Virus record (IMG/VR): IMGVR_UViG_3300037400_003843 | Location: 1-64,000 of that record | Source: a virus | Lineage: Duplodnaviria; Caudoviricetes | DNA length: 64,000 nucleotides | Direction: 5' to 3' (one strand) | In this document: one piece after another, positions 2,200 through 42,004 of the stretch | Layout of the letters: the number at the start of each line of letters is the position of its first letter | How positions within the stretch are numbered: the stretch's first letter is position 1 | Translations under genes and position numbers: made by a program | The notes under the pieces: model-generated | The model's input: the letters and a program-made list of their open reading frames with translations, nothing else | What the model was told of the DNA's origin: nothing | Databases searched by the model: none

Positions 2200-2607
2200 A
2201 TGGCAAGATTAGACGATTATGATTATGACCGCATGCCTCACGGAATGCGCGAATATTTAAGTTACCACGGCTATCACTTTTCTAAGCCTATGTGCGAGTG
2301 GGCGATTGGTATGATGAGAGACCGTAACGGAAATAAGGTACAGATGCGTACGAAGGACCAGGTGGACTCCGTGCTAAAAGCGAATAACGCCTGGGTCGAG
2401 GACGCAAAGGGTTATGACGCAGTGTTTACCCTGCATATGGCGATTTCCGATTTCCTCGGAAGTTCAGTCCCAGATGAGGCACACGCTGCCATGTATGTGA
2501 AAGACCTGCTTGGAGACAAAGACGGTTACGACGGGATTGTGTTTACCCGATTCTTAGCCGACTGCTCTGCTAAAGGCATTCCAATCCCGTGGGGAGAATT
2601 ACTTTAA
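2200..2607 (+). CDS. Hypothetical protein
   Basis: 135 aa ORF following a hairpin at about 2163-2182. Confidence 0.85.
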   Translation: MARLDDYDYDRMPHGMREYLSYHGYHFSKPMCEWAIGMMRDRNGNKVQMRTKDQVDSVLKANNAWVEDAKGYDAVFTLHMAISDFLGSSVPDEAHAAMYVKDLLGDKDGYDGIVFTRFLADCSAKGIPIPWGELL

Positions 2608-3218
2608 TCGGCATAGCGCCATTTACATCCGTGGTGGTGAGAATATTTGCCGACGATACAGCAACGAATGCTTCTTTCACAGAACCCAGCAAGTACCGCG
2701 TCTTGCATTGATGCAAATGTTTTTTCTGTGCCGTCCGGGCAAACACAAATAACCCTCTTGGCTCGAATTCGTTTGCCGTAAAAATAGCAATTTGTACCAG
2801 ATTTTACTTTTGATATATGTTGCTTTGTGATTGGATTGTTTGCATTCTCGGTAATCGTAACCCATCTTAAGTTTTCAACACGATTATCAAAAGTGTTGGT
2901 GTTAATGTGGTCAATGCATGGCTTGTTGTCTGGGTTGTCAATGAAGGCCAGCGCGACAGCCTTATGAAGATAAATTCTGGGCGGCATCCCATCGCGATAA
3001 GCACTGAATCCGAGGTACTTTCGGCCAGGACCGCTACCACTTTGTTTTCGAATTCGCTCCTTAATATAGTGGATACTTCCGTCCTTGTGAATACTTATTC
3101 TCGCTACGGACTTGGCCCGAGCAAGATTCGACACTTGATAATACCCTTCCCACCCAGGGATATCCTTCCAGACCTCGCCAGGCATGTCTTCGAGAGACAG
3201 ATTTTGATACGGTAACAT
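2604..3218 (-). CDS. NUMOD4-HNH-NUMOD1 homing endonuclease
   Basis: EVWKDIPGWEGYYQVSN (NUMOD4), IDHINTNTFDNRVENLRWVT (HNH), C-terminal HTH ending GCKWRY. Confidence 0.92.
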   Translation of the reverse strand: MLPYQNLSLEDMPGEVWKDIPGWEGYYQVSNLARAKSVARISIHKDGSIHYIKERIRKQSGSGPGRKYLGFSAYRDGMPPRIYLHKAVALAFIDNPDNKPCIDHINTNTFDNRVENLRWVTITENANNPITKQHISKVKSGTNCYFYGKRIRAKRVICVCPDGTEKTFASMQDAVLAGFCERSIRCCIVGKYSHHHGCKWRYAD

Positions 3219-3254
3219 AGAACAACGGTTTATATGTGAGCAACGGAAAAATAA

Positions 3255-3324
3255 AGAGCGGAAGGCGCCGTTGCTTCGCTTTTCGGAGGGTAGCTACTCC
3301 CGTCCTATCCGCTCTACAAAGATA
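3255..3324 (-). ncRNA. Promoter (TATCTTTG) plus structured leader, family B copy 1
   Basis: Minus strand agagcGGATAGGacgggAGTAGCTAccctCCGA...CCTTCCgctct; outer stem agagcgga/tccgctct; matches copy at 10123. Confidence 0.7.
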
Positions 3325-3334
3325 AGAAAAAATT

Positions 3335-3739
3335 GTGATAATTCGCAAAGTTCGCATACATGATTGGACGATTTTGTTCCTGTTCTCCTTCGACCGGTAC
3401 GATATGGAGCGCATCTACGACGCCCTGTTCTGGGTAAACGCGCCCGATTCTATCATTTCACAAGTGTCAGAGAACGTGTATGCCGGTCGCTTGAATGAGG
3501 GCTTCACATACAGCGAACCCTCACTCAGGCGCACTGTTTTCGCGACGGGTATTGCCGAAAATGGCCCGGAGGTTCTGGATAGTGTCGTCCATGAGATAAT
3601 CCACATCTGTCAGCACGTCGCCATCGAGGACGGAATGGATCCTTTCGGCGAAGCCTTTGCTTACTTGGGAGGAGATATCTCGCGAGAGATAAGTGATATA
3701 GTATGCGAGCTTTCCTGCCCGCATTGCAGTGGCGCCTGA
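3335..3739 (+). CDS. HExxH-containing putative metallopeptidase-like protein
   Basis: 134 aa; VVHEIIH motif, downstream E, C-terminal CPHC. Confidence 0.7.
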   Translation: MIIRKVRIHDWTILFLFSFDRYDMERIYDALFWVNAPDSIISQVSENVYAGRLNEGFTYSEPSLRRTVFATGIAENGPEVLDSVVHEIIHICQHVAIEDGMDPFGEAFAYLGGDISREISDIVCELSCPHCSGA

Positions 3740-3758
3740 GGCAAGTTTCGGCCCTGCA

Positions 3759-3793
3759 AAAAGCCCCGGGGTTATGCGGTTCCCTGGGGCTTT
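3759..3793. terminator. Bidirectional intrinsic terminator between convergent arms
   Basis: aaagccccggg...cctggggcttt hairpin flanked by A and T runs. Confidence 0.7.
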
Positions 3794-4344
3794 CCTTCTC
3801 TATAGGCCTTGAGCTCTTTCTCAAATGCTTCCGTGTGGCAGAATCCGCAGCATTTCATCTCAGGGCAGAATCCCCTGTAGACGCACTGCCGGACCATGAC
3901 CTGTGCCATCTCCGGGTCGATCTTTTCAACCTCGTTCTTGACGGCCTGCCAGGCCTCTCGTGTTTCTTTCGATGCGCAATTGCATAAGCGCTTCCTGGAG
4001 ATGTTTATCATGGCTTGGGCGTTAATGACGAAATCCTGGTCATTAAGAGAACCTTGCGGCATATAGTCCCTGGGGACCGGGTTGTCCCTCCTGTCGGCCC
4101 GCTGGGAGTGGATGAACGGAAGAATAAACGGGTGGCGAAGCAGGTGAACCCCGACCCATTGCCGGAGCGCCTTGAACTGAATCAGATATTCGACCAGCTT
4201 TATCTGGCTGTGCTCTGCGTACAGGCTCCTGAGTTTGAATTCACGGGAAGGCTCCTTATCCAATGGCTCCTTGCCCATGGTCCGGCGGGCCGCATTCAGC
4301 GCACGCTTCCAGCCGGTCTCGTTTGTTACCTTGACCTCTATCAT
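3772..4344 (-). CDS. thyX: Flavin-dependent thymidylate synthase (ThyX family)
   Basis: AEHS motif, RH-x8-SQR (ThyX RHRx7SxR spacing), NAQAMINISRKRLC. Confidence 0.8.
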   Translation of the reverse strand: MIEVKVTNETGWKRALNAARRTMGKEPLDKEPSREFKLRSLYAEHSQIKLVEYLIQFKALRQWVGVHLLRHPFILPFIHSQRADRRDNPVPRDYMPQGSLNDQDFVINAQAMINISRKRLCNCASKETREAWQAVKNEVEKIDPEMAQVMVRQCVYRGFCPEMKCCGFCHTEAFEKELKAYREGKPQGTA

Positions 4345-4667
4345 ACCTCGTCAATGTAACCGTTATACCTATCCAGCGACCTACGAATCCTTTGCTGAGC
4401 CAGGCCGATAATGTCGAGAACATCGGCCGCGTCTTCGGTGGCGAGCCGGTCGGTCAAATCCGAGTTCTCTATTGACTGCAGGATGAGCAGGCATTTCGGA
4501 ACTCCCATGAACTTGCAGAACCGCTCGATAGTAGCCTGTTTTGGTACGGACTGTCCGGACTCGAGTGCCCGGAGCGCCTGAGGAGATATGCCAATCTCCC
4601 TTGCAAGGGTTACTTGCTTCGTGCCGGCTTCCTTTCGTATCCGGCGCATTGTTTTACCTATATTCAT
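4341..4667 (-). CDS. XRE-family helix-turn-helix regulator
   Basis: IGKTMRRIRKEAGTKQVTLAREIGISPQALRALESG. Confidence 0.85.
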   Translation of the reverse strand: MNIGKTMRRIRKEAGTKQVTLAREIGISPQALRALESGQSVPKQATIERFCKFMGVPKCLLILQSIENSDLTDRLATEDAADVLDIIGLAQQRIRRSLDRYNGYIDEV

Positions 4668-5026
4668 ATTTCTTTCTGTTTTTCCCTCTGAAGCCTTTTC
4701 TCCGTCGCAATGATGTGATATAGCCTCAAGAGGATGTTCTTCGATTTACGGCCGGTTCCGTAGCGTTTGTCGGCCTTTATGAGAGTGTCGACGCCAAGCG
4801 GTCGCAACATCCTACGATAATCGCTCCTGATAAGGACCATATACTTCCGGTCCAACTGGTATGCGTGACCGTTGATCCTGGCGCCTCCGGTCCAGCGTGC
4901 AATAGAAAGAGCACCGGACATCCATTCGCTTTCCGTCAGTAGTATTCTGTTTGTTGTAGTCATAGCGGTTAATTGGCACCCCGGCCGGCAATCACGCCAT
5001 GCCGGGGCGATTTTTACTGAGAACAA
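4664..5026 (-). CDS. Hypothetical protein
   Basis: ORF with stop/start overlap in the minus-strand operon; true start probably an internal Met. Confidence 0.65.
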   Translation of the reverse strand: MFSVKIAPAWRDCRPGCQLTAMTTTNRILLTESEWMSGALSIARWTGGARINGHAYQLDRKYMVLIRSDYRRMLRPLGVDTLIKADKRYGTGRKSKNILLRLYHIIATEKRLQREKQKEI

Positions 5027-5038
5027 AAGCCGGATTGG

Positions 5039-5248
5039 TTACCGGGCCGTGTCCTTTTCACGGCGGTTAATGGGTTGAAAACTTGTGTTGGCGGATATAT
5101 GACCGCTATATGCTTCGTTGTAGATTATTCCGTTTCGAACGACGACATGTCCTGATACCTTGACAATCTTGCCGCGAAACTCGTGGTTCGGACCGAATAC
5201 CTCACTGTATTCTTTCCACTCCTGTGTTCCTTTCTTTCTTGCTTTCAT
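5039..5248 (-). CDS. Hypothetical protein
   Basis: 69 aa, ATGA-type overlap with neighbour. Confidence 0.6.
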   Translation of the reverse strand: MKARKKGTQEWKEYSEVFGPNHEFRGKIVKVSGHVVVRNGIIYNEAYSGHISANTSFQPINRREKDTAR

Positions 5249-8668: not shown

Positions 8669-9414
8669 ATTTTTAATTCTTTAGCCCACTTGGAAAGGAC
8701 GCCCTTACGAAGAGGACGCCCTTCCCTCGTGCAATAAACTGACGGATTTTTGTCGAACAGCACCTGTGCCTCCTCCAGGATCTCCTTTCGAGGCCGGCGC
8801 CGAAGAAGTTGGTTTTCTACCCACATATAGAGCGCCGACCCTCTCTTCCATTCATTTGCTCGCTTCTGCGCGTTTATGGCGGATTGCGAGGACGCGGCGC
8901 TTGTATCTACGCCCTTACCACGGCCGAGCGTGTTAATCCAGCGACCCGCCTTTGACATGTGGCCGCCGTTCTTGGCGATATCGTCCTTTATGGACTCGAG
9001 AGCAGATTTCGTACGGCCCGCAATCAATTCTCTTTCATAGGCGGCAACCGTAGCGAAGACGCCGAGGGTAAGCGTATTCATGACCGGAAGGTCGCATACA
9101 TATATGGAAATCCCAGTTTCCATAACCTTGAATGTGAACGCGATATTTCTGGCGAGACGATCGAGTTTAGCGATAACAAGCGTACAGGGCTCTATAGGCG
9201 TACTATTTGCCTTGCAGAAGTCTATCGCATCCAAAAGCCCCGGACGATCCGTTTCCTTTCCGCTCATGGCATCCTGGAACTCTTTCAGCACAACTCCGTC
9301 CTGGCGCTCGACATAGTCAAGGCACATACGTCTTTGTGCGTCAATTCCAAGGCCGGAGTCTTTTTGCTTACGTGTTGATACGCGGTAGTATGCAGCAAAT
9401 TTAGGCTTACTCAT
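8662..9414 (-). CDS. Small serine recombinase (resolvase/invertase family)
   Basis: Start trimmed to MSKPKFAAYYRVSTRKQ (catalytic Ser), SGKETDRPGL, AKLDRLARN, YERELIAGRTKSAL. Confidence 0.92.
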   Translation of the reverse strand: MSKPKFAAYYRVSTRKQKDSGLGIDAQRRMCLDYVERQDGVVLKEFQDAMSGKETDRPGLLDAIDFCKANSTPIEPCTLVIAKLDRLARNIAFTFKVMETGISIYVCDLPVMNTLTLGVFATVAAYERELIAGRTKSALESIKDDIAKNGGHMSKAGRWINTLGRGKGVDTSAASSQSAINAQKRANEWKRGSALYMWVENQLLRRRPRKEILEEAQVLFDKNPSVYCTREGRPLRKGVLSKWAKELKIC

Positions 9415-10087
9415 CTTTGAATTTCCATTTGTATCCGCCGGCCGAGGCCTGAATGCCATAGCAGCAGGCGGAGATGTTTGAACCATGTATTCCAAGCTCC
9501 ATGGCAGCGTAAGAACTACCGAGCCACTCGCGGACAAAACTCCCGTCCATTGTCATCTGAATTACAGGCTTGGTATGCGTGCCAGTGTTTCCTCGGCCTA
9601 TATTCCTTCTCCATTCTTCCGGAAGTTTTCTGCCGTATAAAGGGCTGTTCTTACCAGAGTATCTTTCTGAACGAGTTTTGGCTCCATTCGAAAGTGCCTC
9701 CTCTGTATGCGACGCAGCTATAACCTTTTCCGCACTGCGATAAAAAGACTCTCGGTATCTCTGAATTGTTACTGGATTGTTGTGGTTTTCTTTTGTCGTA
9801 ACCCACCTCAGGTTACTCGCGCGGTTATTCTTTGTGTCACCGTCAATGTGGTCAACCTCCGGCTTGCCATCAGGGTTTTCATGGAACGCCATCGCAATAA
9901 GCACATGTACGCGATATGTTTTAGGCGATCCGTTACGGCATAGCACGAGGCTATCGTACTTTCTTGTCCTCCCAGATGGAGACATGACCAGAAGACGGCC
10001 GTATCTTATGCTACGGACCCTGCCAAGACTACTTGCCTGGTACAATCCCTCATAACCCGGGATGTCTTTCCAAATTTCCTCTTCCAT
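9407..10087 (-). CDS. NUMOD4-HNH-NUMOD3-NUMOD1 homing endonuclease
   Basis: MEEEIWKDIPGYEGLYQAS, VDHIDGDTKNNRASNLRWVT, GKNSPLYGRKL, AGGYKWKF. Confidence 0.92.
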   Translation of the reverse strand: MEEEIWKDIPGYEGLYQASSLGRVRSIRYGRLLVMSPSGRTRKYDSLVLCRNGSPKTYRVHVLIAMAFHENPDGKPEVDHIDGDTKNNRASNLRWVTTKENHNNPVTIQRYRESFYRSAEKVIAASHTEEALSNGAKTRSERYSGKNSPLYGRKLPEEWRRNIGRGNTGTHTKPVIQMTMDGSFVREWLGSSYAAMELGIHGSNISACCYGIQASAGGYKWKFKDE

Positions 10088-10122
10088 AGAAGCTGACAAA
10101 TTTATGTTGGCTGACAAATAGA

Positions 10123-10194
10123 AAAGCAGGAAGGGCTGTCAGCTTACCTTTGTCGGCCGGTAGCTACTCCGGCCTATCCTGCTTTGCAAATATA
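10123..10194 (-). ncRNA. Promoter (TATATTTG) plus structured leader, family B copy 2
   Basis: Minus strand aaagcaGGATAGGccggAGTAGCTAccggCCGAcaaaggtAAGCtgacagccCTTCCtgcttt. Confidence 0.7.
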
Positions 10195-10261
10195 GCAATA
10201 ATTTTACTTTCTGGCAAGCATATCGTCCAAATATGCCACGAACATTGCTATCAGGAACATA

Positions 10262-10633
10262 CTACATTATGTTTACGGTTGAACCATCCGGGCAGATACA
10301 GGTAATGTGCCCGATTTCTTTCTCCCCTGCAGTTATATACCCGTCACCGGTATAGAAGTACCCGTAGACCTCGAGCGTGATGTTATACTCGGCGCAGTAC
10401 GGGTCGACGGTGTCGGCATGCTCCCACTCCGCGTCCGTCCAGTACTCGTCCCATAGGCACCTGGCCATGATCCTGTGATAGGCCGGAGAGAGCGTGAAGA
10501 TAGCAAGGCAGAATAGGGCGAACTGGACCAGGGCGAAAACGACGCGCCAGGCAGTGCTATCCATAAAGAGCGATACCGCGCCGACGATGGCGCTCAGGAT
10601 GATGATTACATAGAAGGTTTTGTTCTGTTTCAT
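10262..10633 (-). CDS. Membrane protein, two N-terminal TM helices
   Basis: 123 aa with two hydrophobic segments. Confidence 0.75.
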   Translation of the reverse strand: MKQNKTFYVIIILSAIVGAVSLFMDSTAWRVVFALVQFALFCLAIFTLSPAYHRIMARCLWDEYWTDAEWEHADTVDPYCAEYNITLEVYGYFYTGDGYITAGEKEIGHITCICPDGSTVNIM

Positions 10634-11759: not shown

Positions 11760-11859
11760 TGCTTTGTTTTTTTTAAGTAACACTTGCTACAAGAACTATG
11801 CCACTACTTAAGGCGAGTGACGGAACCTACGGAATTTTGGTCGTCTGTTGTGTTCATGG

Positions 11860-14875: not shown

Positions 14876-15592
14876 TCAGTGTGCTTCAAATAAGATTCTT
14901 TCTCCGTTTTTCAGACTCCAGCAGCCCTCGTCCTTTACGGCACAGGCTGAACAATCTCCGCCACACCATATACCGCTCGGTACAAGCTCTCCCTTCCAGA
15001 CCGGCCTCGAGGTCGGCAGGTTGTGCGGATTGAATACATCCAGACCGCGCCACTCGCTGAAGATGATGTGCAGGTTCTCTGGAAGCGGTCCGTTGTCGTC
15101 AATCCATCTGTTGACGATTCCAAACTGCTTCGTGAACGCAAGCACCTGGCAGTGAGGGTTCTTCTTGGACACCTCAACCATAGAATCGAAGAACTCTTCG
15201 CTCAAGATATCTCCCGAAACGAAAAACCGGAACCACTTATTCTTCTTCATCTCCCCGTCCACCTCTCGGAAGAACTTCTCCGGCTCCCTCCTGGCGATTG
15301 CACTGTTATTGGCAAATGCGGCTCGGCTTGCCTTATAGCAGGCAATGTTTCTCGCTGCATAGCAGCCCCTCGCACAGCAGGCGCAGTTTGCGCCACAATC
15401 GGCAATCGGGATAAGCGATACCGACGGTACAAGGTTGCCCGTCTTACGGTTGCCGTAACTGAACTTTACATGGGCGTTCTCCACATCTACCTCGCCCCGC
15501 ATCTCCACCATCTCTTTTACCCGCCCCTGGATGGTTTCGTTCTTGAATTCACAATACTGGTGCTTGCCAGTGAGTTTTGCGTGTGTGCTCAT
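14876..15592 (-). CDS. gp88-like Cys-rich (radical-SAM-like Fe-S) protein
   Basis: GNRKTG..SVSL, CxxxCxCCxxxCYA, FRFFVSGDI, AFTKQ, NLHIIFSEW. Confidence 0.7.
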   Translation of the reverse strand: MSTHAKLTGKHQYCEFKNETIQGRVKEMVEMRGEVDVENAHVKFSYGNRKTGNLVPSVSLIPIADCGANCACCARGCYAARNIACYKASRAAFANNSAIARREPEKFFREVDGEMKKNKWFRFFVSGDILSEEFFDSMVEVSKKNPHCQVLAFTKQFGIVNRWIDDNGPLPENLHIIFSEWRGLDVFNPHNLPTSRPVWKGELVPSGIWCGGDCSACAVKDEGCWSLKNGERILFEAH

Positions 15593-22740: not shown

Positions 22741-22947
22741 AACCGCCCGAAAGACCCACTACCGTACCTGAAAAAAAAGAACCTATGCGTGTACCTGGTA
22801 TGGTTATGGGTTCTTTTTTCGGTAGGTAAGAATATGGTTCTTTAGCCCGGGATTGTTGGGAGTCAGGAAGGCGGGGTGGCTGGGAGTTTTAGTCCCGGTT
22901 TGGCACGGAACTTGAAGGGAGGGACGGTTTCAAAAAACGGTATTAGT

Positions 22948-23196
22948 ATGGTGAAAAAAGAGAAGCTGCATCTCGGCCAGTTGGTCCTGGTCGGAGCGAA
23001 AAGGGAGCCGGCAGTGATTGACGGCCTGACGCAGACCTTCGCGGGAGTGAGGCTCCAGAGCGGAGGTTACGAGTTTTGTGGGTATGATGATATCCAGAGC
23101 ATCGAGGATATGTGCCGCGATGAAGTTGAGAAATGGGTGAATGTGCTGGAGGAGGCATACGGTCTGAAGGGCCTGGAGGTGCCCGCCCATGTTTAA
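22948..23196 (+). CDS. Hypothetical protein
   Basis: Start trimmed to MVKKEKL; first gene of the + arm. Confidence 0.7.
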   Translation: MVKKEKLHLGQLVLVGAKREPAVIDGLTQTFAGVRLQSGGYEFCGYDDIQSIEDMCRDEVEKWVNVLEEAYGLKGLEVPAHV

Positions 23197-23647
23197 GCCG
23201 CCGAGACAGGTCCAGCGGAAGAGACTGGATGACCGGTATGAGGTAGGCAATGACGGGGTCGTGTATAGTGACGGGTGTGCGCTTGTTCCGATCAACGGGG
23301 TTGGAGTGAATATCCATGGTCGGAGGATGAAGATTGCGTATCTGGTCGCCAGGGCCTGGGTCGGCAATCAGGAGGGCAGGCCGTATGTGAGGCACATCAA
23401 CGGTGATGTGAAGGACAACCGGCCGGAGAACCTGGAGTGGTGCGAAGAGAAGGAGGTCACTCGGAAAGGAAGGAAGGCCGAGACCCGGTGGTGCTCGTGC
23501 TTTGACCTGGAAGGGAACAAGGTGGGAATGTACCGGTGCCCGAGTGACGGGGCCGTGGATAAGGGCGTTGATGTGCGTTTTGTCAGGAAGTGTCTGTCCG
23601 GAAGGCAGAAGACCGCCGGCGGTTATATGTGGAGGTGGGGATGTTGA
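23189..23647 (+). CDS. HNH-NUMOD1 endonuclease-like protein
   Basis: IAYLVARAW, VRHINGDVKDNRPENLEWC, QKTAGGYMWRW. Confidence 0.85.
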   Translation: MFKPPRQVQRKRLDDRYEVGNDGVVYSDGCALVPINGVGVNIHGRRMKIAYLVARAWVGNQEGRPYVRHINGDVKDNRPENLEWCEEKEVTRKGRKAETRWCSCFDLEGNKVGMYRCPSDGAVDKGVDVRFVRKCLSGRQKTAGGYMWRWGC

Positions 23648-24801: not shown

Positions 24802-24886
24802 GCCCCGGTGGCGGAAGTGGTAGACGCAAATGGCTAAGGACCATTCACCGTAAGGCGTAGGAGTTCGAGTCTCCTCTGGGGCACCA
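24802..24886 (+). tRNA. tRNA-Leu(AAG), long variable arm, encoded CCA
   Basis: GCCCCGG/CTGGGGC acceptor, AATGG-CTAAGGA-CCATT anticodon arm, AGGAG-TTCGAGT-CTCCT, A73 CCA. Confidence 0.9.
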
Positions 24887-24950: not shown

Positions 24951-25035
24951 GGAAAGTTGGGGGATCGGTTTAACCCAGGCGCCCGCTACGCGCCCGTTCC
25001 GAAAGGGGCCGATGGTTCGAATCCATCACTTTCCG
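24951..25035 (+). tRNA. tRNA-Ser(GCT) with non-canonical C33/C38
   Basis: GGAAAGT/ACTTTCC, GGCGC-CCGCTAC-GCGCC, long variable arm, G73. Confidence 0.8.
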
Positions 25036-25046
25036 CAGGCAATATT

Positions 25047-25515: not shown

Positions 25516-25595
25516 GGCGGCTTAGCTCAGTCGGTAGAGCGCATCCGGTCGGCCAGTATTGGATGGGGTCGGGAGTTCGAATCTCCTCGCCGCCT
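25516..25595 (+). tRNA. tRNA-like gene with expanded (14 nt) anticodon loop; anticodon undetermined
   Basis: GGCGGC/GCCGCC acceptor, GCTC-AGTCGGTA-GAGC D arm, CATCC-14nt-GGATG, GGGAG-TTCGAAT-CTCCT. Confidence 0.7.
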
Positions 25596-25741
25596 CTTGT
25601 AAGTTTAAAATTAAATTCGCATCTTTGCAATCCGCGTCAAAGGGAACGGCGCAGAAGAAAAATCGGGCTGGAGTGGCCAGGGTGTTCCCACCTTCTTCGG
25701 AAGGGCCCTGTCCATTCCAGCCTTTTTGTACTAAAAACCGC

Positions 25742-28930: not shown

Positions 28931-28941
28931 GAATAATTCGC

Positions 28942-29044
28942 TATCTTTGCTCTTGCTATGTACGAGATAGCGGAAGAAATATAGGATGCTCGGATAAGTA
29001 GGTGTTTGCTCGTACCATTCACTGAAAGTTCGGGCACTTTTTTT
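28942..29044 (+). ncRNA. Promoter plus kissing-loop / loop-E leader, family A copy 1
   Basis: gctat-GTACGAG-atagc; tgctcgga-taAGTAgg...CTCGTAC...ctGAAag-ttcgggca-T run. Confidence 0.8.
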
Positions 29045-29050
29045 ACAAAA

Positions 29051-29626
29051 ATGAAAGAAGAAATTTGGAAGGATATTCCCGGGTATGAGGGGATATACCA
29101 AGTTAGCGATTGGGGAAGAGTTCGCTCCCTCGACATGTTCGTTCCGATAAGGGGTGGAGTGCAAACAAGGCATGGTAGAGTTTTGGTTCCATATATCAAT
29201 ATAGATGGATATAGAACCGTTTCCCTATGTAAAAACAAGAAGAAAAGGACTTTGAGGGTATGCAGGTTGGTCGCTATTACTTTTATTCTTAATCAGTATA
29301 ATTATCCAACAGTCAATCATATAAACGAGATAAAAACAGACGATCGCGTTGAGAATCTCGAGTGGTGCACAGTGAAATATAATTTAAATTATAGAAACCG
29401 GCGAGCAAACGCAACGGCGACAAGAAAACGAAATAAAGTCGGATTCAAGCCTGTTGAGCAATATGACCTAAGTGGCAATCTTGTTGCTGTTTACGAAAGC
29501 ACAGCCGCCGCAGCCCGGGCGACCGGCTGCGGCCAAGGTTTAATTTCGAATAATTGCCTGGGAAGAACAAAAACCGCAGGCGGTTATAAATGGAAATACT
29601 TGGATGGCACAGATATTGTAGAATAA
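29051..29626 (+). CDS. NUMOD4-HNH-NUMOD1 homing endonuclease
   Basis: MKEEIWKDIPGYEGIYQVS, VNHINEIKTDDRVENLEWCT, KTAGGYKWKY. Confidence 0.92.
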   Translation: MKEEIWKDIPGYEGIYQVSDWGRVRSLDMFVPIRGGVQTRHGRVLVPYINIDGYRTVSLCKNKKKRTLRVCRLVAITFILNQYNYPTVNHINEIKTDDRVENLEWCTVKYNLNYRNRRANATATRKRNKVGFKPVEQYDLSGNLVAVYESTAAAARATGCGQGLISNNCLGRTKTAGGYKWKYLDGTDIVE

Positions 29627-32853: not shown

Positions 32854-32927
32854 GGATGGGTAGCTCAGTGGTAGAGCGCGGTAAGAGTTGAGACCGTAAG
32901 TCGCGGATTCGAGTTCCGCCCCGTCCG
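32854..32927 (+). tRNA. tRNA-like gene with 10-nt purine-rich anticodon loop; anticodon undetermined
   Basis: GGATGGG/CCCGTCC, GCTC-AGTGGTA-GAGC, CGGT-AAGAGTTGAG-ACCG, GCGGA-TTCGAGT-TCCGC. Confidence 0.7.
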
Positions 32928-32932
32928 CAAAT

Positions 32933-33359: not shown

Positions 33360-34898
33360 ATGGCATTAGAGTTAAGAAAATACCAGGCACAGGCGGTTTC
33401 GGAAGTAAGATTTGCATTAGGGCGTTACCGTAAGGTTATGCTCCAGGCCGCTTGTGGGTTCGGCAAGACCGTTTGCTTCAGTTATATCGCTTCAAAGACG
33501 ATAGAGAAGGGGCATAGAGTCCTTATCTTGTCCGACCGCTGCGAGATTCTGACGCAGAACGGTGGCGCATTGGAGAAGATGGGCACCCAAGTCGAGTATG
33601 TCACTCCGAAGAACAAGAAGGTGCCGACCGGAATGTGTATCGTCTGTATGGCACAAACCCTTCGGCGAAGAATCGAAAAGCAAGAGTGGCTGGATTGGTT
33701 GCAAACGGTCGATTTTGTGGTTATTGATGAAGCACATTCTTGTAGTACGGACTTTATCCATCCGTATCTGCGCGAGAACGTATGGCTTCTGGGTTGCTCG
33801 GCTACGCCTGCCAGGAGAAGCCACCAAAAGCAGCTCTGCGAAATTTACAGGGCGATGGTTACGACCATATCGACGAAGGAACTTATTGCTCTCGGATATC
33901 TATCAAAGTCGAACCACTATTCGATTATAGCCCCTTCTCTGGACGGATTGAATATAGATTCCGGCACCGGCGACTATAACCGCAAGCAACTTGCGATGCG
34001 CTTCGAGAATAAGGCTATCTATACCGGCATTGTGGATGAGTATATGCGACTGACTCCGCATAAGAGGGCTATCTGCTTCTGTGTATCGGCGAAACAGGCT
34101 ATTGAGCAGACGAAGATATTTAATGAGCGTGGAATATCGGCCAAGTATGTATTATCCGGCTCCTTTGATAGCGATGATACTTACAGCGGCAAGCGAAGCG
34201 ATGTATTTCAAGACTTCAAAGACCACAAGTTCGAGGTGCTGGTTAATGTAGGTGTTGCAGTCGCAGGATTCGATCAAAAGGACATCGAAGTCGTAATCCT
34301 CAACTTCGCTACGGTATCCATTACAAGGTATCTACAGGCGACCGGTCGCGGTTCCAGAGTGACGGATACAAAGCACGAGTTTACGGTGCTTGATGCCGGC
34401 CGAAACTTCGCCAAGTTCGGAGTTTATGAGGCAGACCGTCAGTGGAGCCTACAACACGACGAGCATTCTTCGTCAGGCGTGATGGCAATGAAGATATGCG
34501 ACACGACGAAGAAGGACTGTAACGGACATTATGGCTGCGGTCGCCTTGTTCCGACGACGCTAAAGATCTGCAAGGAATGTGGCTATGTCTTTCGCACTGC
34601 GGAGTATGAGTATCAGCTACACCTGGAAAAGGTTCAAGAGGAGAACTCAGAGGATAGCATCGAGGCTTTCGCTGCAAAAAAACGCGCAGAAGGGTGGAAG
34701 CTAAACAGAATTTGCGTTGCTGTTGGTCTAAGGGAACCCGATAGGGCAAGGCGAGCAGTAATGACCGCTTATCTTGCTTGCTGCCCTGACAAGACAGAAG
34801 CGGACGCGAGGAAGTTCTGGTTTGTTTTTGAAAACAATGTATGGAAGAATGTCAAGCATAAGCGAAAAAATGACAATGATGCTTCTTTGTTCCAATAA
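33360..34898 (+). CDS. SF2 DEAD/DEAH-like helicase with C-terminal Zn ribbon
   Basis: ACGFGKT, DEAH, SAT, GFD, QATGRGSR, CGR...CKEC. Confidence 0.92.
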   Translation: MALELRKYQAQAVSEVRFALGRYRKVMLQAACGFGKTVCFSYIASKTIEKGHRVLILSDRCEILTQNGGALEKMGTQVEYVTPKNKKVPTGMCIVCMAQTLRRRIEKQEWLDWLQTVDFVVIDEAHSCSTDFIHPYLRENVWLLGCSATPARRSHQKQLCEIYRAMVTTISTKELIALGYLSKSNHYSIIAPSLDGLNIDSGTGDYNRKQLAMRFENKAIYTGIVDEYMRLTPHKRAICFCVSAKQAIEQTKIFNERGISAKYVLSGSFDSDDTYSGKRSDVFQDFKDHKFEVLVNVGVAVAGFDQKDIEVVILNFATVSITRYLQATGRGSRVTDTKHEFTVLDAGRNFAKFGVYEADRQWSLQHDEHSSSGVMAMKICDTTKKDCNGHYGCGRLVPTTLKICKECGYVFRTAEYEYQLHLEKVQEENSEDSIEAFAAKKRAEGWKLNRICVAVGLREPDRARRAVMTAYLACCPDKTEADARKFWFVFENNVWKNVKHKRKNDNDASLFQ

Positions 34899-34905: not shown

Positions 34906-35015
34906 TATATTTGCATAGTGAAACTCGTATGACGGACGAGTGATAGAAATATAAAAGCCCCGGACAAGTAGGATAGTGCCGTCATCGCTATTTGAAAATT
35001 CGGGGTCTTTGTTTT
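34906..35015 (+). ncRNA. Promoter plus kissing-loop / loop-E leader, family A copy 2
   Basis: ctcgt-ATGACGG-acgag; gccccgga-caAGTAgg-atagtg-CCGTCAT-cgctat-ttGAAaa-ttcggggt. Confidence 0.8.
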
Positions 35016-35018: not shown

Positions 35019-36182
35019 ATGATAGAAGAAGTTTGGAGCAATATATCTTGGGCGCCAGGATATATGGTCAGCACGCTTGGAAATGTAAGAAGTCTAAATT
35101 GGCGCAGGCAGGGCATAGCAAAGAATTTAATTCCGCGCCCGTCTGGCCGTGGATACCTCCAAGTATCTATTCGGGTTAATAATACTCCCATCCGTGTTTA
35201 TGTTCACAGGCTTGTCGCGGAGGCTTTTATAGATAACCCTAATGGATATCCACAGGTAAACCATAAGGACGAGAATAAAACCAATAATAGAGTTGACAAC
35301 CTTGAATGGTGTGACGGGTCCTATAATCAAAATTATGGCACAGTTAAGGAAAGGAGGCGTAGGACAAATGTCGGGAGAGGAAATATTTGTGCTGGAACAC
35401 CCGTTTGCCAATACTCGTTGGATGGGGATTTTATTAGGGAGTACGCCACGATATCGGAAGCTCAAGAGATTTCTGGTATAAATAGCATAGGTTCTGCAGT
35501 AAACGGAAAGGCTAAGCAAATGGGCGGTTTTATTTGGAGAAGAAAGGGAGAGGACGTCGGGGAGATTGACTTCGATAGATATTCTCTTCATCACGCAAGA
35601 CCGGTTAAGCAATACTCTCTTCGCGGGGATGAATTGGCCTCGTTTCTTTCTATTAAGGATGCCTCTGAAACAACTGGTATACAGAGATTATCAATCATCA
35701 ATTGCGCGAGGGGGAAATTTAGAACCGCTGGCGGCTATGTATGGAGGTATTGCGATGAAGAACACCACCCAAACAATATTAGGAGGGAATTCGAGTTTAT
35801 GACAGACGAATTACACGATGTGCGTGGTTTTCATGGCGAATATAAGGTTAATAAACGCGGAGAAGTAATAAGCATGAATTTTCTGTCTACGAATCGGCTA
35901 GGAATAATGGAGGGTTATACTACAAAACGGGGATTTAGGGGGATAAATATGACAAAGGATGGAATTGCCTACAGGAAATTGATTTGCATAATTGTAGCGC
36001 AATCTTTCATCCCGAATCCGAGCGGTTTTTCTTGTATTGAGCATATTGATGGGTGCCTTACTAATGACAATGTGTCCAATTTACGATGGGTCCGCGGAAA
36101 GCGTGACAGAACAGACCTTGTCTGGCTCCGTAGCGTTAAAGATAAAGTGAGCGATGCGGACTCCTCGCCGAAACTGCTTTAG
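35019..36182 (+). CDS. NUMOD4-HNH endonuclease with two NUMOD1 repeats and a second HNH domain
   Basis: [34 protein letters not shown], two GGxxWR modules, second [19 protein letters not shown]. Confidence 0.88.
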
Positions 36183-36185: not shown

Positions 36186-36917
36186 ATGGAGATAAAAGGA
36201 AAGGTTTGGTGCATGTTCGAGCAGAGCGGCACCTTTAAGAATGAGTTTAAGAAGCTCGGATACGACGCGGTTGACCTGGATATCCAAAACAACTTCGGCG
36301 AGACGGATTATCAGATAGATTTGTTCGCGGAGATAGAAAAAGCATATAGGGGGGGGTGGCAAAGTGTTTTTGATTCAATCACTTACGATGATTTAATTAT
36401 GGCGTTTTTCCCTTGTATACATTTCTGCGATTTTAAAACGCTCTATTTTTTGGGAGTGAATATCGGACAAAAAGGGAAGCCCCTGCACGAACTTATGCGT
36501 CAAAATATAGAATTTGCAAAGCAGAGGGAAGCCTTCTTTTACACGCTGATGGAATTTGTCGCAGTGTGTTCATCCAGGGGACTCCGCCTTATAATTGAAA
36601 ACCCTTATAATTCCAGCGGAATGACATATCTTGAAAATAACTTCATCCGCCCTACGATTATAGACAAAAATAGGATGACGCGCGGGGATTATTACGTCAA
36701 ACCGACTGGTTACTGGTTTGTGAATTGCGCCCCTACGTACGGATTTACGGAGCAGAGAGACAAGAGGCAGAAGACTATAATGAAGGCAAAGATGAGGGCC
36801 AAGCCGGGAGTCTGCAACGAGGAAAGGTCCATGATTTCCCCCGACTACGCACGCAACTTCATCTGCGACTTCATCCTCGGCAAGGAGCAGGCATTTTCGG
36901 AACCGAAACTGTTTTAG
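36186..36917 (+). CDS. C5-cytosine methyltransferase-like protein, with a G8 tract
   Basis: FEQSG (motif I-like), FFPC (motif IV), IENP (motif VI), KPT. Confidence 0.7.
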   Translation: MEIKGKVWCMFEQSGTFKNEFKKLGYDAVDLDIQNNFGETDYQIDLFAEIEKAYRGGWQSVFDSITYDDLIMAFFPCIHFCDFKTLYFLGVNIGQKGKPLHELMRQNIEFAKQREAFFYTLMEFVAVCSSRGLRLIIENPYNSSGMTYLENNFIRPTIIDKNRMTRGDYYVKPTGYWFVNCAPTYGFTEQRDKRQKTIMKAKMRAKPGVCNEERSMISPDYARNFICDFILGKEQAFSEPKLF

Positions 36918-37140: not shown

Positions 37141-37173
37141 ACGGAATAGTCCCAAGAAAAGCGAATACGAGAA

Positions 37174-38624: not shown

Positions 38625-39028
38625 TATTAGAGACTCCGGAGCGGCCTAAGAAGCGGGGCCATTCGATGCCAGAGGGAAAAATCCAGGCAGAATGCTATCA
38701 GCATTTCTGGAACACTTACCCGCAGTATCGAGGCCTCTATTTTGCTGTACCGAACGAAAACAACCGGGCAGACTCAAACGCAATCACCGGCGCTATCCGC
38801 AGGTCTATGGGTGTATATCATGGCGTATCTGACACGCTTATGCTTATCCCTCGCGGGCCATATCATGGACTTTGCATCGAATACAAGGACGAGAAGGGCC
38901 GGCAGTCAGAGCACCAGATAGCTTGGCAAAAGCTCGTCGAGTCGCAGGGATACGCTTATCGGGTCTGCCGCAGTTTAGAACAATTTAAAATTATCGTTGG
39001 CGAATACTTCGCTTTGCATCATGCCTAA
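38621..39028 (+). CDS. VRR-NUC domain nuclease
   Basis: EGKIQ, FAVPNE, GVSD, LCIEYK, GRQSEHQ. Confidence 0.9.
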   Translation: MILETPERPKKRGHSMPEGKIQAECYQHFWNTYPQYRGLYFAVPNENNRADSNAITGAIRRSMGVYHGVSDTLMLIPRGPYHGLCIEYKDEKGRQSEHQIAWQKLVESQGYAYRVCRSLEQFKIIVGEYFALHHA

Positions 39029-39644
39029 AAACACTATCATACCGATGCGGCCGGATGGATTCAATTCGAGTCTCACCCAGGGCGAGCAGACCTGTCTCAC
39101 ATGGTTGGTCCTCTCTGGTTGCTCCAAAGAGGATGCCTTTATCCTTTTCGCTCGGCCAGATATGGCAGAATCAAGGGCCAGGGCCGTAGTGAAGGAGACC
39201 ATCAAGCAGTTCTATGCCAGGGCCGAGGTAAAGGAATACCTCACGGCGTACAGGACGACTCTGGAGGACCTGGTTAACCAGAAGCGAAAGGAAAAGGAGC
39301 CGGTCTGCACAGGCACGCTCGAGGAAAGGAAGGCTCGCGCAAAGACCAGAGCAACAGAGTTTGCCATGTCACTAGCTGAAAATATTGACCAGGCAGATGA
39401 CCCTGAATATGTTCTCAAACTTATGGACAAAGTCGGTCTCCTCGACGCGGAAGAGCAGGTAGAAGAGCAGCCGAGAAGGTATATTCCTCAATCTTGTTTG
39501 GACGGCTGCAGGTATAGGATGTTTGTTGAAGAGAACTGTGAAGACGAATGCCAATTTTGTCGATACAAAAAGTATGGCGAGGAAAATGGCGTACATTTCA
39601 AAAACGAGGAAATGCTAGATATCCCACAAAAAGTTGTGGAATAA
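39021..39644 (+). CDS. Putative terminase small subunit
   Basis: Helical HTH-like N-terminus; position after VRR-NUC and upstream of TerL. Confidence 0.45.
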   Translation: MPKNTIIPMRPDGFNSSLTQGEQTCLTWLVLSGCSKEDAFILFARPDMAESRARAVVKETIKQFYARAEVKEYLTAYRTTLEDLVNQKRKEKEPVCTGTLEERKARAKTRATEFAMSLAENIDQADDPEYVLKLMDKVGLLDAEEQVEEQPRRYIPQSCLDGCRYRMFVEENCEDECQFCRYKKYGEENGVHFKNEEMLDIPQKVVE

Positions 39645-39656
39645 ACAAATAATTGC

Positions 39657-39760
39657 TATCTTTGTATTGCTATGGACGAGATAGCTATTTAGATACATAA
39701 AGCCCTGGATTAGTAGGCGCGAGCTCGTCCCTCCGTTGAAAGTTCAGGGCGCTTTGTTTT
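39657..39760 (+). ncRNA. Promoter plus kissing-loop / loop-E leader, family A copy 3
   Basis: gctat-GGACGAG-atagc; gccctgga-ttAGTAgg-cgcgag-CTCGTCC-ctccg-ttGAAag-ttcagggc. Confidence 0.8.
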
Positions 39761-39763
39761 CAA

Positions 39764-40729
39764 ATGAGAGTAAGAGATATTGTTATCGGGGAACGATACA
39801 AGGATATCCTTGTTGTAGGCCCCAAGTATCGAAAGAACAGGGCAACATATTACGGTTGTCAGTGTATGCGATGTGGGAAAATTTACGAAATGCGTAATGA
39901 TCATATCGGAAATTCTACGTGTTGTGCTGATTGTTTTCCGAAGGACAACATTGTTGATTTATCTGGGAAAAGATTCGGCCGTCTTGTTGCATTAAAGTAT
40001 GTTGGGCGAAATAACGATAGGTCTTTATGGCGGTGTATTTGTGATTGCGGTAAAGAATCTATTACTGGATACTCGAATCTTGTAAGCGGGAACACCCGCT
40101 CTTGCGGATGCCTTGAGAAAGAAAATCTTGCGTATATTCAAAAGCATTCTTGCCGCAGAAAATCGGCGTCAAAGGAATTTAAACAAACTTTATCCGAACA
40201 CCCTCTATATGGTTTATGGTCCTCAATGCTCACAAGGTGCTACAACAAATCACGCAACTCTTATAAGCATTATGGCGGAAGAGGAATAAAAGTTTGCGAC
40301 AGGTGGCTTCCAGAGAATAAGGGGTTCGAGAACTTCTTAAATGATATGGGGCCGAGACCGAGTATTGAATATACTCTTGATAGAATAGATAATGAAGGAG
40401 ATTATTGCCCAGAGAACTGTAGGTGGGCGACGCCAAGACAACAGGGCAGTAATAAGCGAACAAGTATAATTTTATTCTATAAGGGGGCGAGAATTCCCGC
40501 TTTGGATGTATGCGAGGCGACTGGGCTAAAATATCAAACTCTATCGCATCAACTAAAGAGAGGATACGATATAAACATAATTATAGAGAATAAGGGCGCA
40601 GACTTTCGCCAAGGCAAATACAAGAAAAATCTTGACGCTATTAAAACAGGAAACAGAAATATTACTATCTTTGTGCCAGAGTTAGAATCCGATGGCACGG
40701 AACTTGCAGAAGAAAATCCGACTGAATAG
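39764..40729 (+). CDS. HNH-like homing endonuclease (DLSGKRFGRL / YGGRGIKVC type)
   Basis: WRCICDCG, YGGRGIKVCDRW, TLDRIDNEGDYCPENCRWAT. Confidence 0.88.
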   Translation: MRVRDIVIGERYKDILVVGPKYRKNRATYYGCQCMRCGKIYEMRNDHIGNSTCCADCFPKDNIVDLSGKRFGRLVALKYVGRNNDRSLWRCICDCGKESITGYSNLVSGNTRSCGCLEKENLAYIQKHSCRRKSASKEFKQTLSEHPLYGLWSSMLTRCYNKSRNSYKHYGGRGIKVCDRWLPENKGFENFLNDMGPRPSIEYTLDRIDNEGDYCPENCRWATPRQQGSNKRTSIILFYKGARIPALDVCEATGLKYQTLSHQLKRGYDINIIIENKGADFRQGKYKKNLDAIKTGNRNITIFVPELESDGTELAEENPTE

Positions 40730-40800
40730 TCGTGTCCATTGCTTCTTGGGCGGTGAAGAATAGTAGCCGCCTTTTTTATGAAACTTTTTTGTTATATTAT

Positions 40801-41097
40801 ATGGAAATTAAAGGAAGAGTCTTAGAGAAGCCCGCATCAAAGACGGGCGTTTCATCTAGAGGCCCCTGGAAAAGGGCGCAGTTGGTAATCCGTTATGAGG
40901 ACGGGCAATACCCTAAGGATATTCTCCTGTCGAATATGAACAAGGCGGAAGAATTTGAGCGCATCCCGATTGGCGCGACGGGAACATTTAAATTTGACGG
41001 CAGTGTTCGGGGAAAAGACGGGAATTACTATCTCGACCTAAACTGCTGGTCTTGGACGCTTGATCAGGCTGCACCTGGCAGCGCGGATCCGATTTAG
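40801..41097 (+). CDS. DUF3127-like OB-fold protein
   Basis: MEIKGRV...GVSSRGPWKR...EDGQYPKDI...NCWS, Bacteroidetes phage family pattern. Confidence 0.75.
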   Translation: MEIKGRVLEKPASKTGVSSRGPWKRAQLVIRYEDGQYPKDILLSNMNKAEEFERIPIGATGTFKFDGSVRGKDGNYYLDLNCWSWTLDQAAPGSADPI

Positions 41098-41121
41098 TTT
41101 GGAAAATCCAAAATCTTTTCC

Positions 41122-41226
41122 TATCTTTGTGGTACGGTAAGGTCCAGTTACCACAGATAGAAACCTAAAGCCCCACAACGAGTAGGCGCGTGCTGGACCC
41201 ACCGCCGAAAGTTGTGGGGTATTTTG
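41122..41226 (+). ncRNA. Promoter plus kissing-loop / loop-E leader, family A copy 4
   Basis: ggtaa-GGTCCAG-ttacc; gccccacaa-cgAGTAgg-cgcgtg-CTGGACC-caccg-ccGAAag-ttgtggggt. Confidence 0.8.
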
Positions 41227-41233
41227 TAGTATT

Positions 41234-42004
41234 ATGCCTTGGAAGAGATTAACAAGAGAGGAATTTATTCAGAGAGCAAAAGCCGTAAATGGGGATGCGT
41301 ATAATTATGACCTAATCGAATATGAGGGGATGACGAAGAAGATTCATGTAGTCGGGATGGACGGCGAGTTCGATATATGGCCTTATAATTTTTTAAGAAG
41401 GCGCGGACCGCAGACAAAAAATAAGCCTGGATGGAAGGGAGATAGGAGGAGGCCGCTTTACGGTGTTGGAATAAACGACGAATTTGGGGTTACGAGAACA
41501 CCGGCATATAGGAAATGGGCCGGTATCATCGAGCGGTGCTATAAGCCAAATAGAGGGAAACGCTATCCGGCATATGTTGGCTGCTCAATCTGTGACGAAT
41601 GGAAATATTTTTCTTGTTTCAGGCGATGGTTTGAAAAGAATTCTATACCCGGTTATGATTTGGATAAAGATATATTGAAGCAAGGTAATCGTGTTTATTG
41701 CCCAGAGTATTGCTGTTTTGTTCCGAGAGAAATTAACCTTCTAATTTCTGGGCTAAATATTAAACGCAAGGACAACTTGCCAGTTGGCGTTTGTTACTCG
41801 GGGAGCAAGAAGAACCCCTATGTTGTAAGATTAAAATGCCAGAAAAGGACTATTCATGTTGGATTGTTTAAGACAGCAGAAGACGCATCTGCCGAATACA
41901 AGAAAATAAAAAAAGGAGAAATAATTCGAGTCGCAAACGAATATTTCAAAGACGGGAAAATATCAGAAAGAGTCTACAATGCACTCTTGTCCTTTGAAGT
42001 TTGA
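41234..42004 (+). CDS. HNH-like endonuclease with AP2-like C-terminus
   Basis: LYGVGIND, YVGCSICDEW, YDLDKDIL, YCPEYCCFVP, LPVGV...HVGLFKTAEDAS. Confidence 0.85.
   Translation: MPWKRLTREEFIQRAKAVNGDAYNYDLIEYEGMTKKIHVVGMDGEFDIWPYNFLRRRGPQTKNKPGWKGDRRRPLYGVGINDEFGVTRTPAYRKWAGIIERCYKPNRGKRYPAYVGCSICDEWKYFSCFRRWFEKNSIPGYDLDKDILKQGNRVYCPEYCCFVPREINLLISGLNIKRKDNLPVGVCYSGSKKNPYVVRLKCQKRTIHVGLFKTAEDASAEYKKIKKGEIIRVANEYFKDGKISERVYNALLSFEV

Follow-up and report, generated by a model that had tools for sequence, protein, structure and literature searches.

Free-standing HNH endonuclease cassettes with structured, exchangeable leaders in an uncultured phage of Bacteroidota type

Introduction

Few selfish elements are as common in phages as homing endonuclease genes, and most of what is known about the ways in which they are rendered harmless comes from T4. 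In the T4 family, these genes are restrained by terminators and by hairpins that mask the translation start, and a downstream promoter restores nrdB after mobE (PMC2988022). The controls of mobE, segB, segF, and I-TevI/II/III have been described (Edgell, Gibb and Belfort, 2010; PMC2988022). Here we describe seven HNH-type open reading frames (ORFs; HNH1 to HNH7) in the first 64 kb (hereafter the window) of IMGVR_UViG_3300037400_003843, a 73,670-bp IMG/VR virus record with direct terminal repeats. Six of these genes have their own promoter followed by a structured leader. These six are likely to be free-standing homing-type mobile cassettes at tight gene junctions, with leaders that throttle or time nuclease synthesis.

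The record represents an uncultured phage of Bacteroidota type. Strong Bacteroidota-type -7 boxes (TAnnTTTG) precede many of its genes, which run leftward up to about 22 kb and rightward beyond. By TerL sequence, the nearest cultured relatives are two Parabacteroides phages (38% identity), and a search of a phage collection with the genome DNA found no near-identical sequence. The genome (G000; 73.7 kb) was compared with four sister genomes (G001 to G004; 67–77 kb), of which the TerL proteins are 51–75% identical to that of G000. Additional related contigs with leader matches are L008, L035, L036, and L038; L009 is a stretch of G001. Two leader types were distinguished, namely a kissing-loop (KL) leader and a three-way-junction (TWJ) leader, which correspond to families A and B of an initial annotation of this DNA. 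Covariance models for the KL leader (R1) and the TWJ leader (R2) were run over the whole 73.7-kb genome and its relatives.

Comparison with described systems

The cassettes resemble the free-standing genes of the T4 family in that nuclease ORFs have conserved phage genes on either side and occur in some relatives but not in others (PMC2988022). A second likeness is an RNA hairpin masking the start, or an intrinsic terminator, near the 5' end, which is here predicted from sequence; moreover, the middle promoter of T4 mobE/nrdB parallels the outward promoters of HNH4 and HNH6 (PMC2988022). However, the T4-family genes have a promoter inside the hairpin or depend on read-through (PMC2988022), whereas the genes described here have their own consensus promoter upstream of the whole fold. 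Furthermore, the T4 hairpins are idiosyncratic, whereas the leaders belong to two covarying multi-helix RNA families that precede unrelated nucleases in more than 100 contigs. Unlike in T4-type masking, there is no Shine-Dalgarno sequence to mask. The second complementary box of the TWJ leader, close to the ATG, is similar in idea to T4-type start masking but different in design. Translation initiation in Bacteroidota uses no Shine-Dalgarno sequence and depends on an open start region.

Among RNA regulators, the P4 CI RNA (seqA/seqB/seqC) and the P1/P7 c4 RNA (a1b1/a2b2; Rfam C4, RF01695) have a loop that complements two sites on the same transcript. The TWJ leader is similar in that it would be a leader-derived structured RNA with one complementary site that overlaps the translation start of the controlled gene. 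It differs in having both boxes downstream of the fold and no Rfam C4 match, and in that the genes under its control would be nucleases instead of immunity or antirepressor operons. For the KL leader, the closest parallels are kissing-loop platforms such as L5-L13 of the cobalamin riboswitch and the 7-nt loops of ColE1 RNA I/RNA II, in which a loop-loop helix of about 7 bp fixes a regulatory hairpin. In contrast to these, the KL leader has no recognisable ligand domain, it is short and contains both loops itself, and almost every copy has a loop word of its own.

For the nucleases, the closest described enzymes are the I-HmuI-type NUMOD/HNH_3 nicking homing endonucleases (PF13392, PF07463, PF22083). 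HNH1 to HNH5 are alike in the order of NUMOD4, HNH_3, and NUMOD-like modules and likewise have the DH..N..N motif. However, I-HmuI is intron-encoded, whereas the cassette genes are free-standing. HNH6 and HNH7 fall outside the I-HmuI type and represent a separate family without Pfam matches, in which Arg or Lys replaces the first His.

Organization of the HNH genes

All seven ORFs of the initial annotation exist at the coordinates given there, including the starts at 29051 and 35019, and all except HNH3 have a -7 box and an R1 or R2 match. The components are as follows (positions are those of the record).

2604..3218, minus strand: HNH1 ORF, 204 aa, NUMOD4 + HNH_3 + NUMOD-like (Pfam, PHROG); its stop codon and that of the convergent gene 2200-2607 overlap
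3219..3334, minus strand: cassette 1 promoter and TWJ leader; -7 box 3317-3324; R2 match 3239-3316; loop 7-mer 3268-3274; complementary boxes 3241-3246 and 3223-3228 (the latter 4 nt before the ATG)
9407..10087, minus strand: HNH2 ORF, 226 aa, NUMOD4 + HNH_3; true start at 10087; its terminal codons overlap the start of the serine recombinase gene (ATG at 9414; Resolvase Pfam match)
10088..10203, minus strand: cassette 2 promoter and TWJ leader; -7 box 10187-10194; R2 match 10108-10185; loop 7-mer 10137-10143; complementary boxes 10110-10116 and 10092-10098 (the latter 4 nt before the ATG)
23189..23647, plus strand: HNH3, 152 aa, HNH_3, backbone gene without promoter or leader
28931..29050, plus strand: cassette 4 promoter and KL leader; -7 box 28942-28949; R1 match 28955-29037
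29051..29626, plus strand: HNH4 ORF, 191 aa, NUMOD4, HNH_3, NUMOD1; sigma54-like motif 29606-29618 in the terminal codons
34899..35018, plus strand: cassette 5 promoter and KL leader; -7 box 34906-34913; KL fold 34924-35007; R1 match at 34929
35019..36182, plus strand: HNH5 ORF, 387 aa, double NUMOD4/HNH; its C-terminal end is a helicase-tail copy
39645..39763, plus strand: cassette 6 promoter and KL leader; -7 box 39657-39664; KL fold 39669-39751
39764..40729, plus strand: HNH6 ORF, 321 aa, DRID instead of DH (PHROG); outward promoters 40666-40673 (TAnnTTTG) and 40694-40706 (sigma54-like) face the DUF3127 gene 40801-41097
41098..41233, plus strand: cassette 7 promoter and KL leader; -7 box 41122-41129; KL fold 41136-41220
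41234..42004, plus strand: HNH7 ORF, 256 aa, HNH-like (PHROG 953/374), immediately followed by the TerL promoter (42023) and TerL

The start of HNH3, which the initial annotation took to be translationally coupled to its neighbor, overlaps the stop of the upstream gene (ATGTTTAA). The description of the cassettes as intergenic is approximate only, since their ends overlap stop codons or a start codon, or place promoter elements within terminal codons.

Empty sites and insertion boundaries

The four sister genomes have clean empty sites for HNH1, 2, 4, 5, 6, and 7, and in each case the promoter and leader are gone along with the ORF. At five of these sites, a sister genome has flanking genes that abut or overlap, without HNH gene, promoter, or leader. 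Promoter, leader, and ORF behave as one insertion unit, in support of the initial annotation. R1 and R2 have no match at the empty sites of G001 to G004, L006, and L007. None of the six cassette ORFs lies within an intron or intein, and each is at a locus whose occupancy varies among close relatives, with precise empty sites. The suggestion that the leader is what lets these genes insert without introns goes too far, since free-standing homing endonuclease genes by definition need no intron.

The HNH1 site is empty in three sisters: its flanking genes show a TAATG overlap in G001 and G002 and are 1 nt apart in G003. It is filled in G000 and G004 by an inverted segment of 727 bp (2608-3334 in G000) that comprises the ORF, the leader, and the -7 box; the -33 TTTG of the cassette 1 promoter falls within codons 4-5 of the right-hand gene. 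The HNH2 site is empty in all four sisters. In G001 and G004 the recombinase gene begins 3-4 nt or less after a tiny conserved ORF, and in G000 the cassette occupies this gap; in G002 there is another small ORF, and G003 has no HNH match near the recombinase gene. The HNH4 site is empty in G002 and G003 (2-6 nt between genes) and filled in G001 and G004. HNH6 is present in G003, L008, L035, and L036, and its site is empty in G001, G002, G004, L006, L007, and L009. HNH7 has no homologue in G001 to G004, and its site is empty in G001 and L006 to L009.

The HNH5 site is empty in G001 and filled in G002 to G004. At the filled sites, the terminal ~8 codons of the helicase gene occur twice, once in diverged form on the helicase gene and again at the end of the HNH ORF. 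In G000, a third copy of this tail (..SSPKLF-type) ends the methyltransferase gene downstream of HNH5 (copies at 34880-34898, 36160-36182, and 36895-36917; G001, 15029-15052). The inserted modules appear to have come with, or made, a helicase-tail copy just before the downstream promoter.

HNH3 shows a different pattern. Its orthologues are full-length in all four sisters (39–56% identity) and are never accompanied by a leader. Given this conservation, HNH3 is a backbone gene and not a mobile cassette.

Module exchange between leaders and ORFs

At the HNH4 site, which is filled in both G000 and G001, the two leaders share 99% identity, whereas the ORFs share 44% and the flanking genes 54–59% (protein). 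The block of identity between G000 and G001 extends from about 10 nt before the -7 box to the U-tract, with diverged sequence on either side. Further pairs of cassettes have leader and ORF identities of 96 and 38%, and of 89 and 34%. In addition, leaders that are 82–83% alike precede NUMOD4 ORFs in one case and HNH6-type ORFs in the other, which belong to unrelated HNH families, and ORFs that are 63–70% alike bear leaders that are only 70% alike. This disagreement between leader and ORF identities indicates that promoter and leader together form a separate module of about 125 bp, with a recombination history distinct from that of the ORF. The earlier reading of these elements as portable and modular is therefore largely right.

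Nuclease domains

Five of the ORFs are canonical NUMOD4/HNH_3 genes by sequence, and HNH6 and HNH7 are HNH-like, predicted nucleases. The Pfam domain HNH_3, with or without NUMOD4, is found in HNH1 to HNH5, and NUMOD4 and NUMOD-like DNA-binding modules accompany it in most of them. HNH1, 2, 3, and 5 score 28–45 bits against the curated HNH_3 cut-off of 24.8. HNH4 reaches 22.9 bits for HNH_3 on the ORF and 24.8 on the frame, with 56 bits for NUMOD4. The DH..N..N motif, including the catalytic His, is kept in HNH1 to HNH5, as well as in the second module of HNH5.

The class that the initial annotation gave to all seven ORFs holds for HNH6 and HNH7 only through PHROG families and, for HNH6, a weak fold match. 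Neither has a Pfam or Protein Data Bank sequence match, and both match the PHROG 'HNH endonuclease' families 374/953/3377 (E 1e-41 to 1e-69). The first catalytic His is replaced by Arg in HNH6 (DRID) and by Lys in HNH7 (DKD), and the Arg is nearly invariant among 28 relatives. The AlphaFold2 model of HNH6 (predicted local distance difference test score of 83) gave a weak VIA-align alignment to the HNH restriction enzyme PacI (3m7k_A; Z 6.0, root-mean-square deviation 3.8 Å, 80 residues), which spans model residues 137-234 and includes the motif. A Foldseek search with the same model returned noise only.

HNH5 is an in-frame fusion of two complete NUMOD4/HNH modules. The duplication is evident from two PHROG stretches and from a weak second HNH_3 match in the C-terminal part, and a single HNH protein of a sister phage aligns to residues 1-122 and again to residues 258-361. 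HNH5 is probably the result of two successive insertions at the helicase site. Module 1 closes at about residue 246 with the typical GGY.W.Y tail, and module 2 begins at about residue 262.

The kissing-loop leader

The KL leaders precede HNH4, 5, 6, and 7. The -7 box is followed by a hairpin of 5-6 bp with a 7-nt loop, an A-rich linker of 15-17 nt, and a long hairpin that has a basal helix of 9 bp, an AGUA(G)/GAAA internal loop, and an upper helix capped by another 7-nt loop. A U-tract lies directly 3' of the fold, and the ATG follows about 10-15 nt past the fold. The two 7-nt loops are exact Watson-Crick complements in all 16 copies (13 by script and three by eye), with at least 10 different loop words among them. 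Because MAFFT misaligned the first hairpin, R1 was seeded from four copies of the same geometry. Compensatory changes occur at 20 of the 26 pairs in the model-based alignment, the kissing helix counted; none of 500 shuffles matched the covariation score, and every slid control collapsed. AGUAG on the 5' strand is kept in 16 of 16 copies, opposite mostly GAAA (GAAC in four). The sequence pattern, an internal loop flanked by two helices and with AGUA facing GAA, matches that of a putative loop E/sarcin-ricin (bulged-G) motif.

A G+C-rich closing helix is followed by a U-tract within a few nucleotides in all 16 KL copies and also in the TWJ copies that were read. A simple terminator scan flags neither leader, since the closing helix is interrupted. 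The KL leader is not a T4-type start-masking hairpin with an embedded promoter, as no conserved KL helix covers the start codon. In some but not all KL copies, the U-tract could also pair with early codons rich in purines and so enclose the AUG; this candidate pairing was dropped.

The three-way-junction leader

The TWJ leaders precede HNH1 and HNH2 and begin 4-6 nt past the -7 box. Two hairpins, one with an 8-nt loop and the other with a loop that bears a 7-mer, are enclosed by an outer helix of 4-8 bp, and a U-tract follows the 3' strand of this helix. Covariation is again evident, with compensatory changes in 13 of 19 pairs and a score that none of 500 shuffles reached.

The complement of the loop 7-mer occurs twice downstream, and the second of these boxes is 4 nt from the ATG in each of the two window copies. 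In a set of 67 distinct leaders taken from viral contigs, perfect double complements of at least 6 nt are present in 34, with 12 different words, compared with 2% of shuffled loops. Most of the remaining leaders have one perfect complement, and several have, by eye, a G-U or imperfect second copy. In this set, the distance from the end of the second box to the ATG is 1-9 nt (mode 4).

The 8-nt hairpin loop of the window copies contains a 6-nt palindrome, UAGCUA (3290-3297 and 10161-10168, minus strand). One model-found copy with another loop (G003, 10285-10300) has a different palindrome, UCAUGA. The palindromic loop hints at a possible loop-loop dimerisation of two leader RNAs.

Specificity and distribution of the leaders

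R1 matches exactly four places and R2 exactly two in the 73.7-kb genome, and these are the six HNH cassettes. A further 12 KL and two TWJ matches in the four sister genomes and four contigs all lie directly ahead of HNH-type ORFs (14/14). The KL and TWJ leaders are two covarying RNA folds outside Rfam, as judged from their sequences. In a scan with the Rfam 15 covariance models, tRNAs alone reached the gathering score, and no match overlapped either leader at E up to 10, including C4, pistol, hammerhead, twister, and riboswitch models. Neither leader was found described in literature searches.

The idea that the leaders are confined to nuclease genes holds within the five genomes G000 to G004, where they precede HNH-type ORFs only. 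It holds less strictly for the TWJ core pattern, which is present in at least 116 viral contigs; all 80 pattern matches examined are true copies behind a Bacteroidota-type promoter. The ORFs behind TWJ copies among the matches listed fall into 47 distinct types: about 33 NUMOD4/HNH, seven TnpB, four other HNH-like, and three non-nuclease types (HTH_36/DnaD_N, DUF6291, and one without assignment). The TWJ-headed TnpB proteins (OrfB_IS605 + Cas12f-like TNB, about 404-409 aa) are found in contigs L118, L121, L135, L168, and L184 (about 89-98 kb), which are crAss-like by size only. Among 64 more distant HNH6-family genes in other phages, the KL leader is missing, and 2-3 have a TWJ-like leader. 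These patterns indicate that the leaders track phage or host lineage, not nuclease family.

Inward and outward promoters

With the exception of HNH3, each HNH ORF has its own TAnnTTTG -7 box followed by a structured leader. In comparison, other strong promoters of the genome have short plain leaders (21991 on the minus strand, 23666, 38399, 42023, 45430, 57529, 57620, and 69173). Outward-facing elements are also present. The terminal codons of HNH6 hold a TAnnTTTG box (40666) and the motif TGGCAC-N5-TTGC (40694), and those of HNH4 hold the latter motif (29606). The sigma54-like motif TGGCAY-N5-TTGC (-24/-12) recurs 25-100 nt ahead of gene starts in all five genomes. The window has five exact plus-strand matches (1.8 expected) at 22902, 24233, 29606, 36919, and 40694, and minus-strand sites at 11802 and 13988; many more are found in G001 to G004. 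With such promoters in their terminal codons, the HNH4 and HNH6 cassettes would re-drive the next phage gene.

The sigma54-like motif is often encoded by the terminal codons of the upstream ORF, which results in recurring protein tails such as DGTEL. In HNH6, a first reading of DGTEL as a displaced end of the upstream gene was dropped, since these codons spell the recurrent TGGCAY-N5-TTG promoter motif, which also ends HNH4 and, in empty alleles, the upstream gene.

Units without an ORF, consisting of a promoter, a hairpin RNA of about 60-70 nt, and a terminator, lie just ahead of the next promoter and are candidate small RNAs (L007, 2440-2530; L009, 9850-9950; window, 57529-57620). The units of L007 and L009 have GUUAGUAAA in common.

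Possible function of the leaders

Each cassette consists of a sigma70-type Bacteroidota promoter, a structured leader of about 100 nt, and a nuclease ORF, with an outward promoter in HNH4 and HNH6. With a closing helix and a U-tract between promoter and ORF, the leader is shaped like an intrinsic terminator or attenuator. In the KL type, the loop-loop helix would lock the terminator-like fold or speed hairpin folding. In the TWJ type, the loop 7-mer could pair with either the proximal box or the start-codon box, and the latter pairing would block initiation. The leaders would in this way supply autonomous, probably throttled nuclease expression. Attenuation, start-site masking, and spread by nuclease-induced gene conversion are what we infer from these sequence features.

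Several observations weigh against this model of throttled homing cassettes. HNH6 and HNH7 are without the first catalytic His, and DNA cutting by them may be doubtful. The conserved KL fold leaves the start codon uncovered, and the computed openness of the start region is 0.30-0.70. A consensus promoter directly ahead of its own 'terminator' is odd unless attenuation is regulated, and two identical TWJ boxes offer no obvious reason for a switch without a further factor. In addition, leaders had been expected to be absent at empty sites, which agrees with the lack of R1 and R2 matches there; however, the empty HNH7 site of L006 (9415-9450) still has 14 nt identical to the 3' end of the leader 41136-41220, followed by a U-tract. 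From its sequence, this stretch looks like the terminator of the DUF3127 gene there. It may be either the scar of a lost cassette or a backbone terminator ancestral to the 3' half of the leader.

Alternatively, the promoter-leader units may be small-RNA genes, in which most transcripts end at the U-tract and the released RNA acts in trans on read-through nuclease mRNAs. The precedent would be the immunity RNAs P4 CI and P1/P7 c4, each of which pairs with its own operon transcript at two sites. The closing helix and U-tract right after a consensus promoter would fit this explanation, as would the single TWJ loop word with two identical target boxes, one of them at the start codon. The palindromic TWJ loop in two spellings would permit RNA dimers, and ORF-less promoter-hairpin-terminator units exist in L007 and L009 at the same junction, and at 57529. 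However, the private loop word of each cassette fits its own boxes or partner loop, which favors action in cis, and no Rfam match (C4 or other) was found at E up to 10; we regard a trans-acting RNA as rather unlikely. The leaders could also be sensors, either riboswitches or protein-binding operators, whose invariant unpaired nucleotides bind a metabolite or a protein of phage or host and so toggle the terminator-like helix and time the nuclease during infection. The stems covary freely while the unpaired AGUAG, GAAA, and A-rich linker are fixed, and one leader type serves unrelated nuclease families, which makes the nuclease an unlikely binder. The AGUA/GAA internal loop of KL, presumably the loop E/sarcin-ricin consensus and thus a common protein-docking module, was also counted in favor of a sensor. 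Nevertheless, there is no ligand or protein candidate and no Rfam riboswitch match, and by inspection no alternative anti-terminator pairing is conserved across copies. A sensor therefore appears quite unlikely. Still, the invariant AGUA/GAAA loop, the A-rich linker, and the palindromic TWJ loop would suggest factor docking or RNA dimerisation, which keeps both of these explanations alive.

Two other explanations have very little in their favor. If the conserved stretch of about 100 bp acted as DNA, for example as a nuclease recognition site or as a recombination hot spot for ORF swapping, the sharp block of 99% identity confined to promoter and leader in G000 and G001 would be accounted for. 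However, compensatory changes that keep four KL helices, three TWJ helices, and the 7-bp loop-loop pairing point to selection on RNA folding, and the leaders are placed strand-specifically between promoter and ATG in every copy, such that a DNA element is very improbable. The compact pseudoknotted fold with invariant junction nucleotides may instead recall a self-cleaving ribozyme that trims the 5' end of the nuclease mRNA, and a hairpin loop that pairs into a second helix is loosely pistol-like in topology. Yet no pistol, hammerhead, twister, hatchet, or other ribozyme model matched at E up to 10, and the pistol P3 hairpin is missing; we consider ribozymes highly improbable. An assignment to pistol, hammerhead, or twister from topology was dropped for want of a model match.

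Throttled homing cassettes are the preferred explanation. This genome and its sisters amount to a clean natural experiment, with defined empty and filled sites and a promoter-leader module of about 125 bp moving between unrelated nuclease families. If the leaders attenuate expression or mask translation, they would be a widespread control device in a host phylum without Shine-Dalgarno initiation, as well as a compact ready-made expression-limiting part for Bacteroides genetics. A further and rather doubtful idea is that the leaders are a portable 'selfish-nuclease governor' of Bacteroidota phages, that is, a regulated attenuator that also yields a small RNA with a private 7-nt code. A resident cassette would then silence its own mRNA, in cis or in trans, once homing is complete. 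Given the TWJ leaders ahead of TnpB genes, the same governor would serve an RNA-guided nuclease. On this idea the leaders would amount to an immunity-like layer for homing endonucleases and for TnpB in phages of crAss size.

Neighboring genes and other features

The core-gene neighbors named in the initial annotation were recovered for the recombinase, the exonuclease region, the helicase, and TerL. HNH2 abuts the serine recombinase gene, HNH4 sits two genes ahead of a RecE-like exonuclease gene, and HNH5 lies between the helicase gene (upstream) and a methyltransferase gene (downstream). HNH6 lies between a gene for a 215-aa protein with no assigned function and the DUF3127 gene, and HNH7 between the DUF3127 gene and TerL. 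Pfam assigns DUF3127 to the gene that had been taken for a putative TerS. HNH1 does not adjoin such a core gene; it is inverted and flanked by two conserved function-unassigned genes on the opposite strand.

A tiny conserved ORF lies ahead of the recombinase gene (10204-10260, minus strand). It encodes 18-20 aa of the MF..AYLDDMLAR type with a hydrophobic N-terminus and is present in G000, G001, G002, and G004, with none noticed in G003. Finally, four tRNA genes were predicted by ARAGORN, namely Leu-aag, Ser-gct, Pro-cgg, and Ser-tga (24802-24886, 24951-25036, 25516-25596, and 32854-32928), three of which are scored by Rfam.

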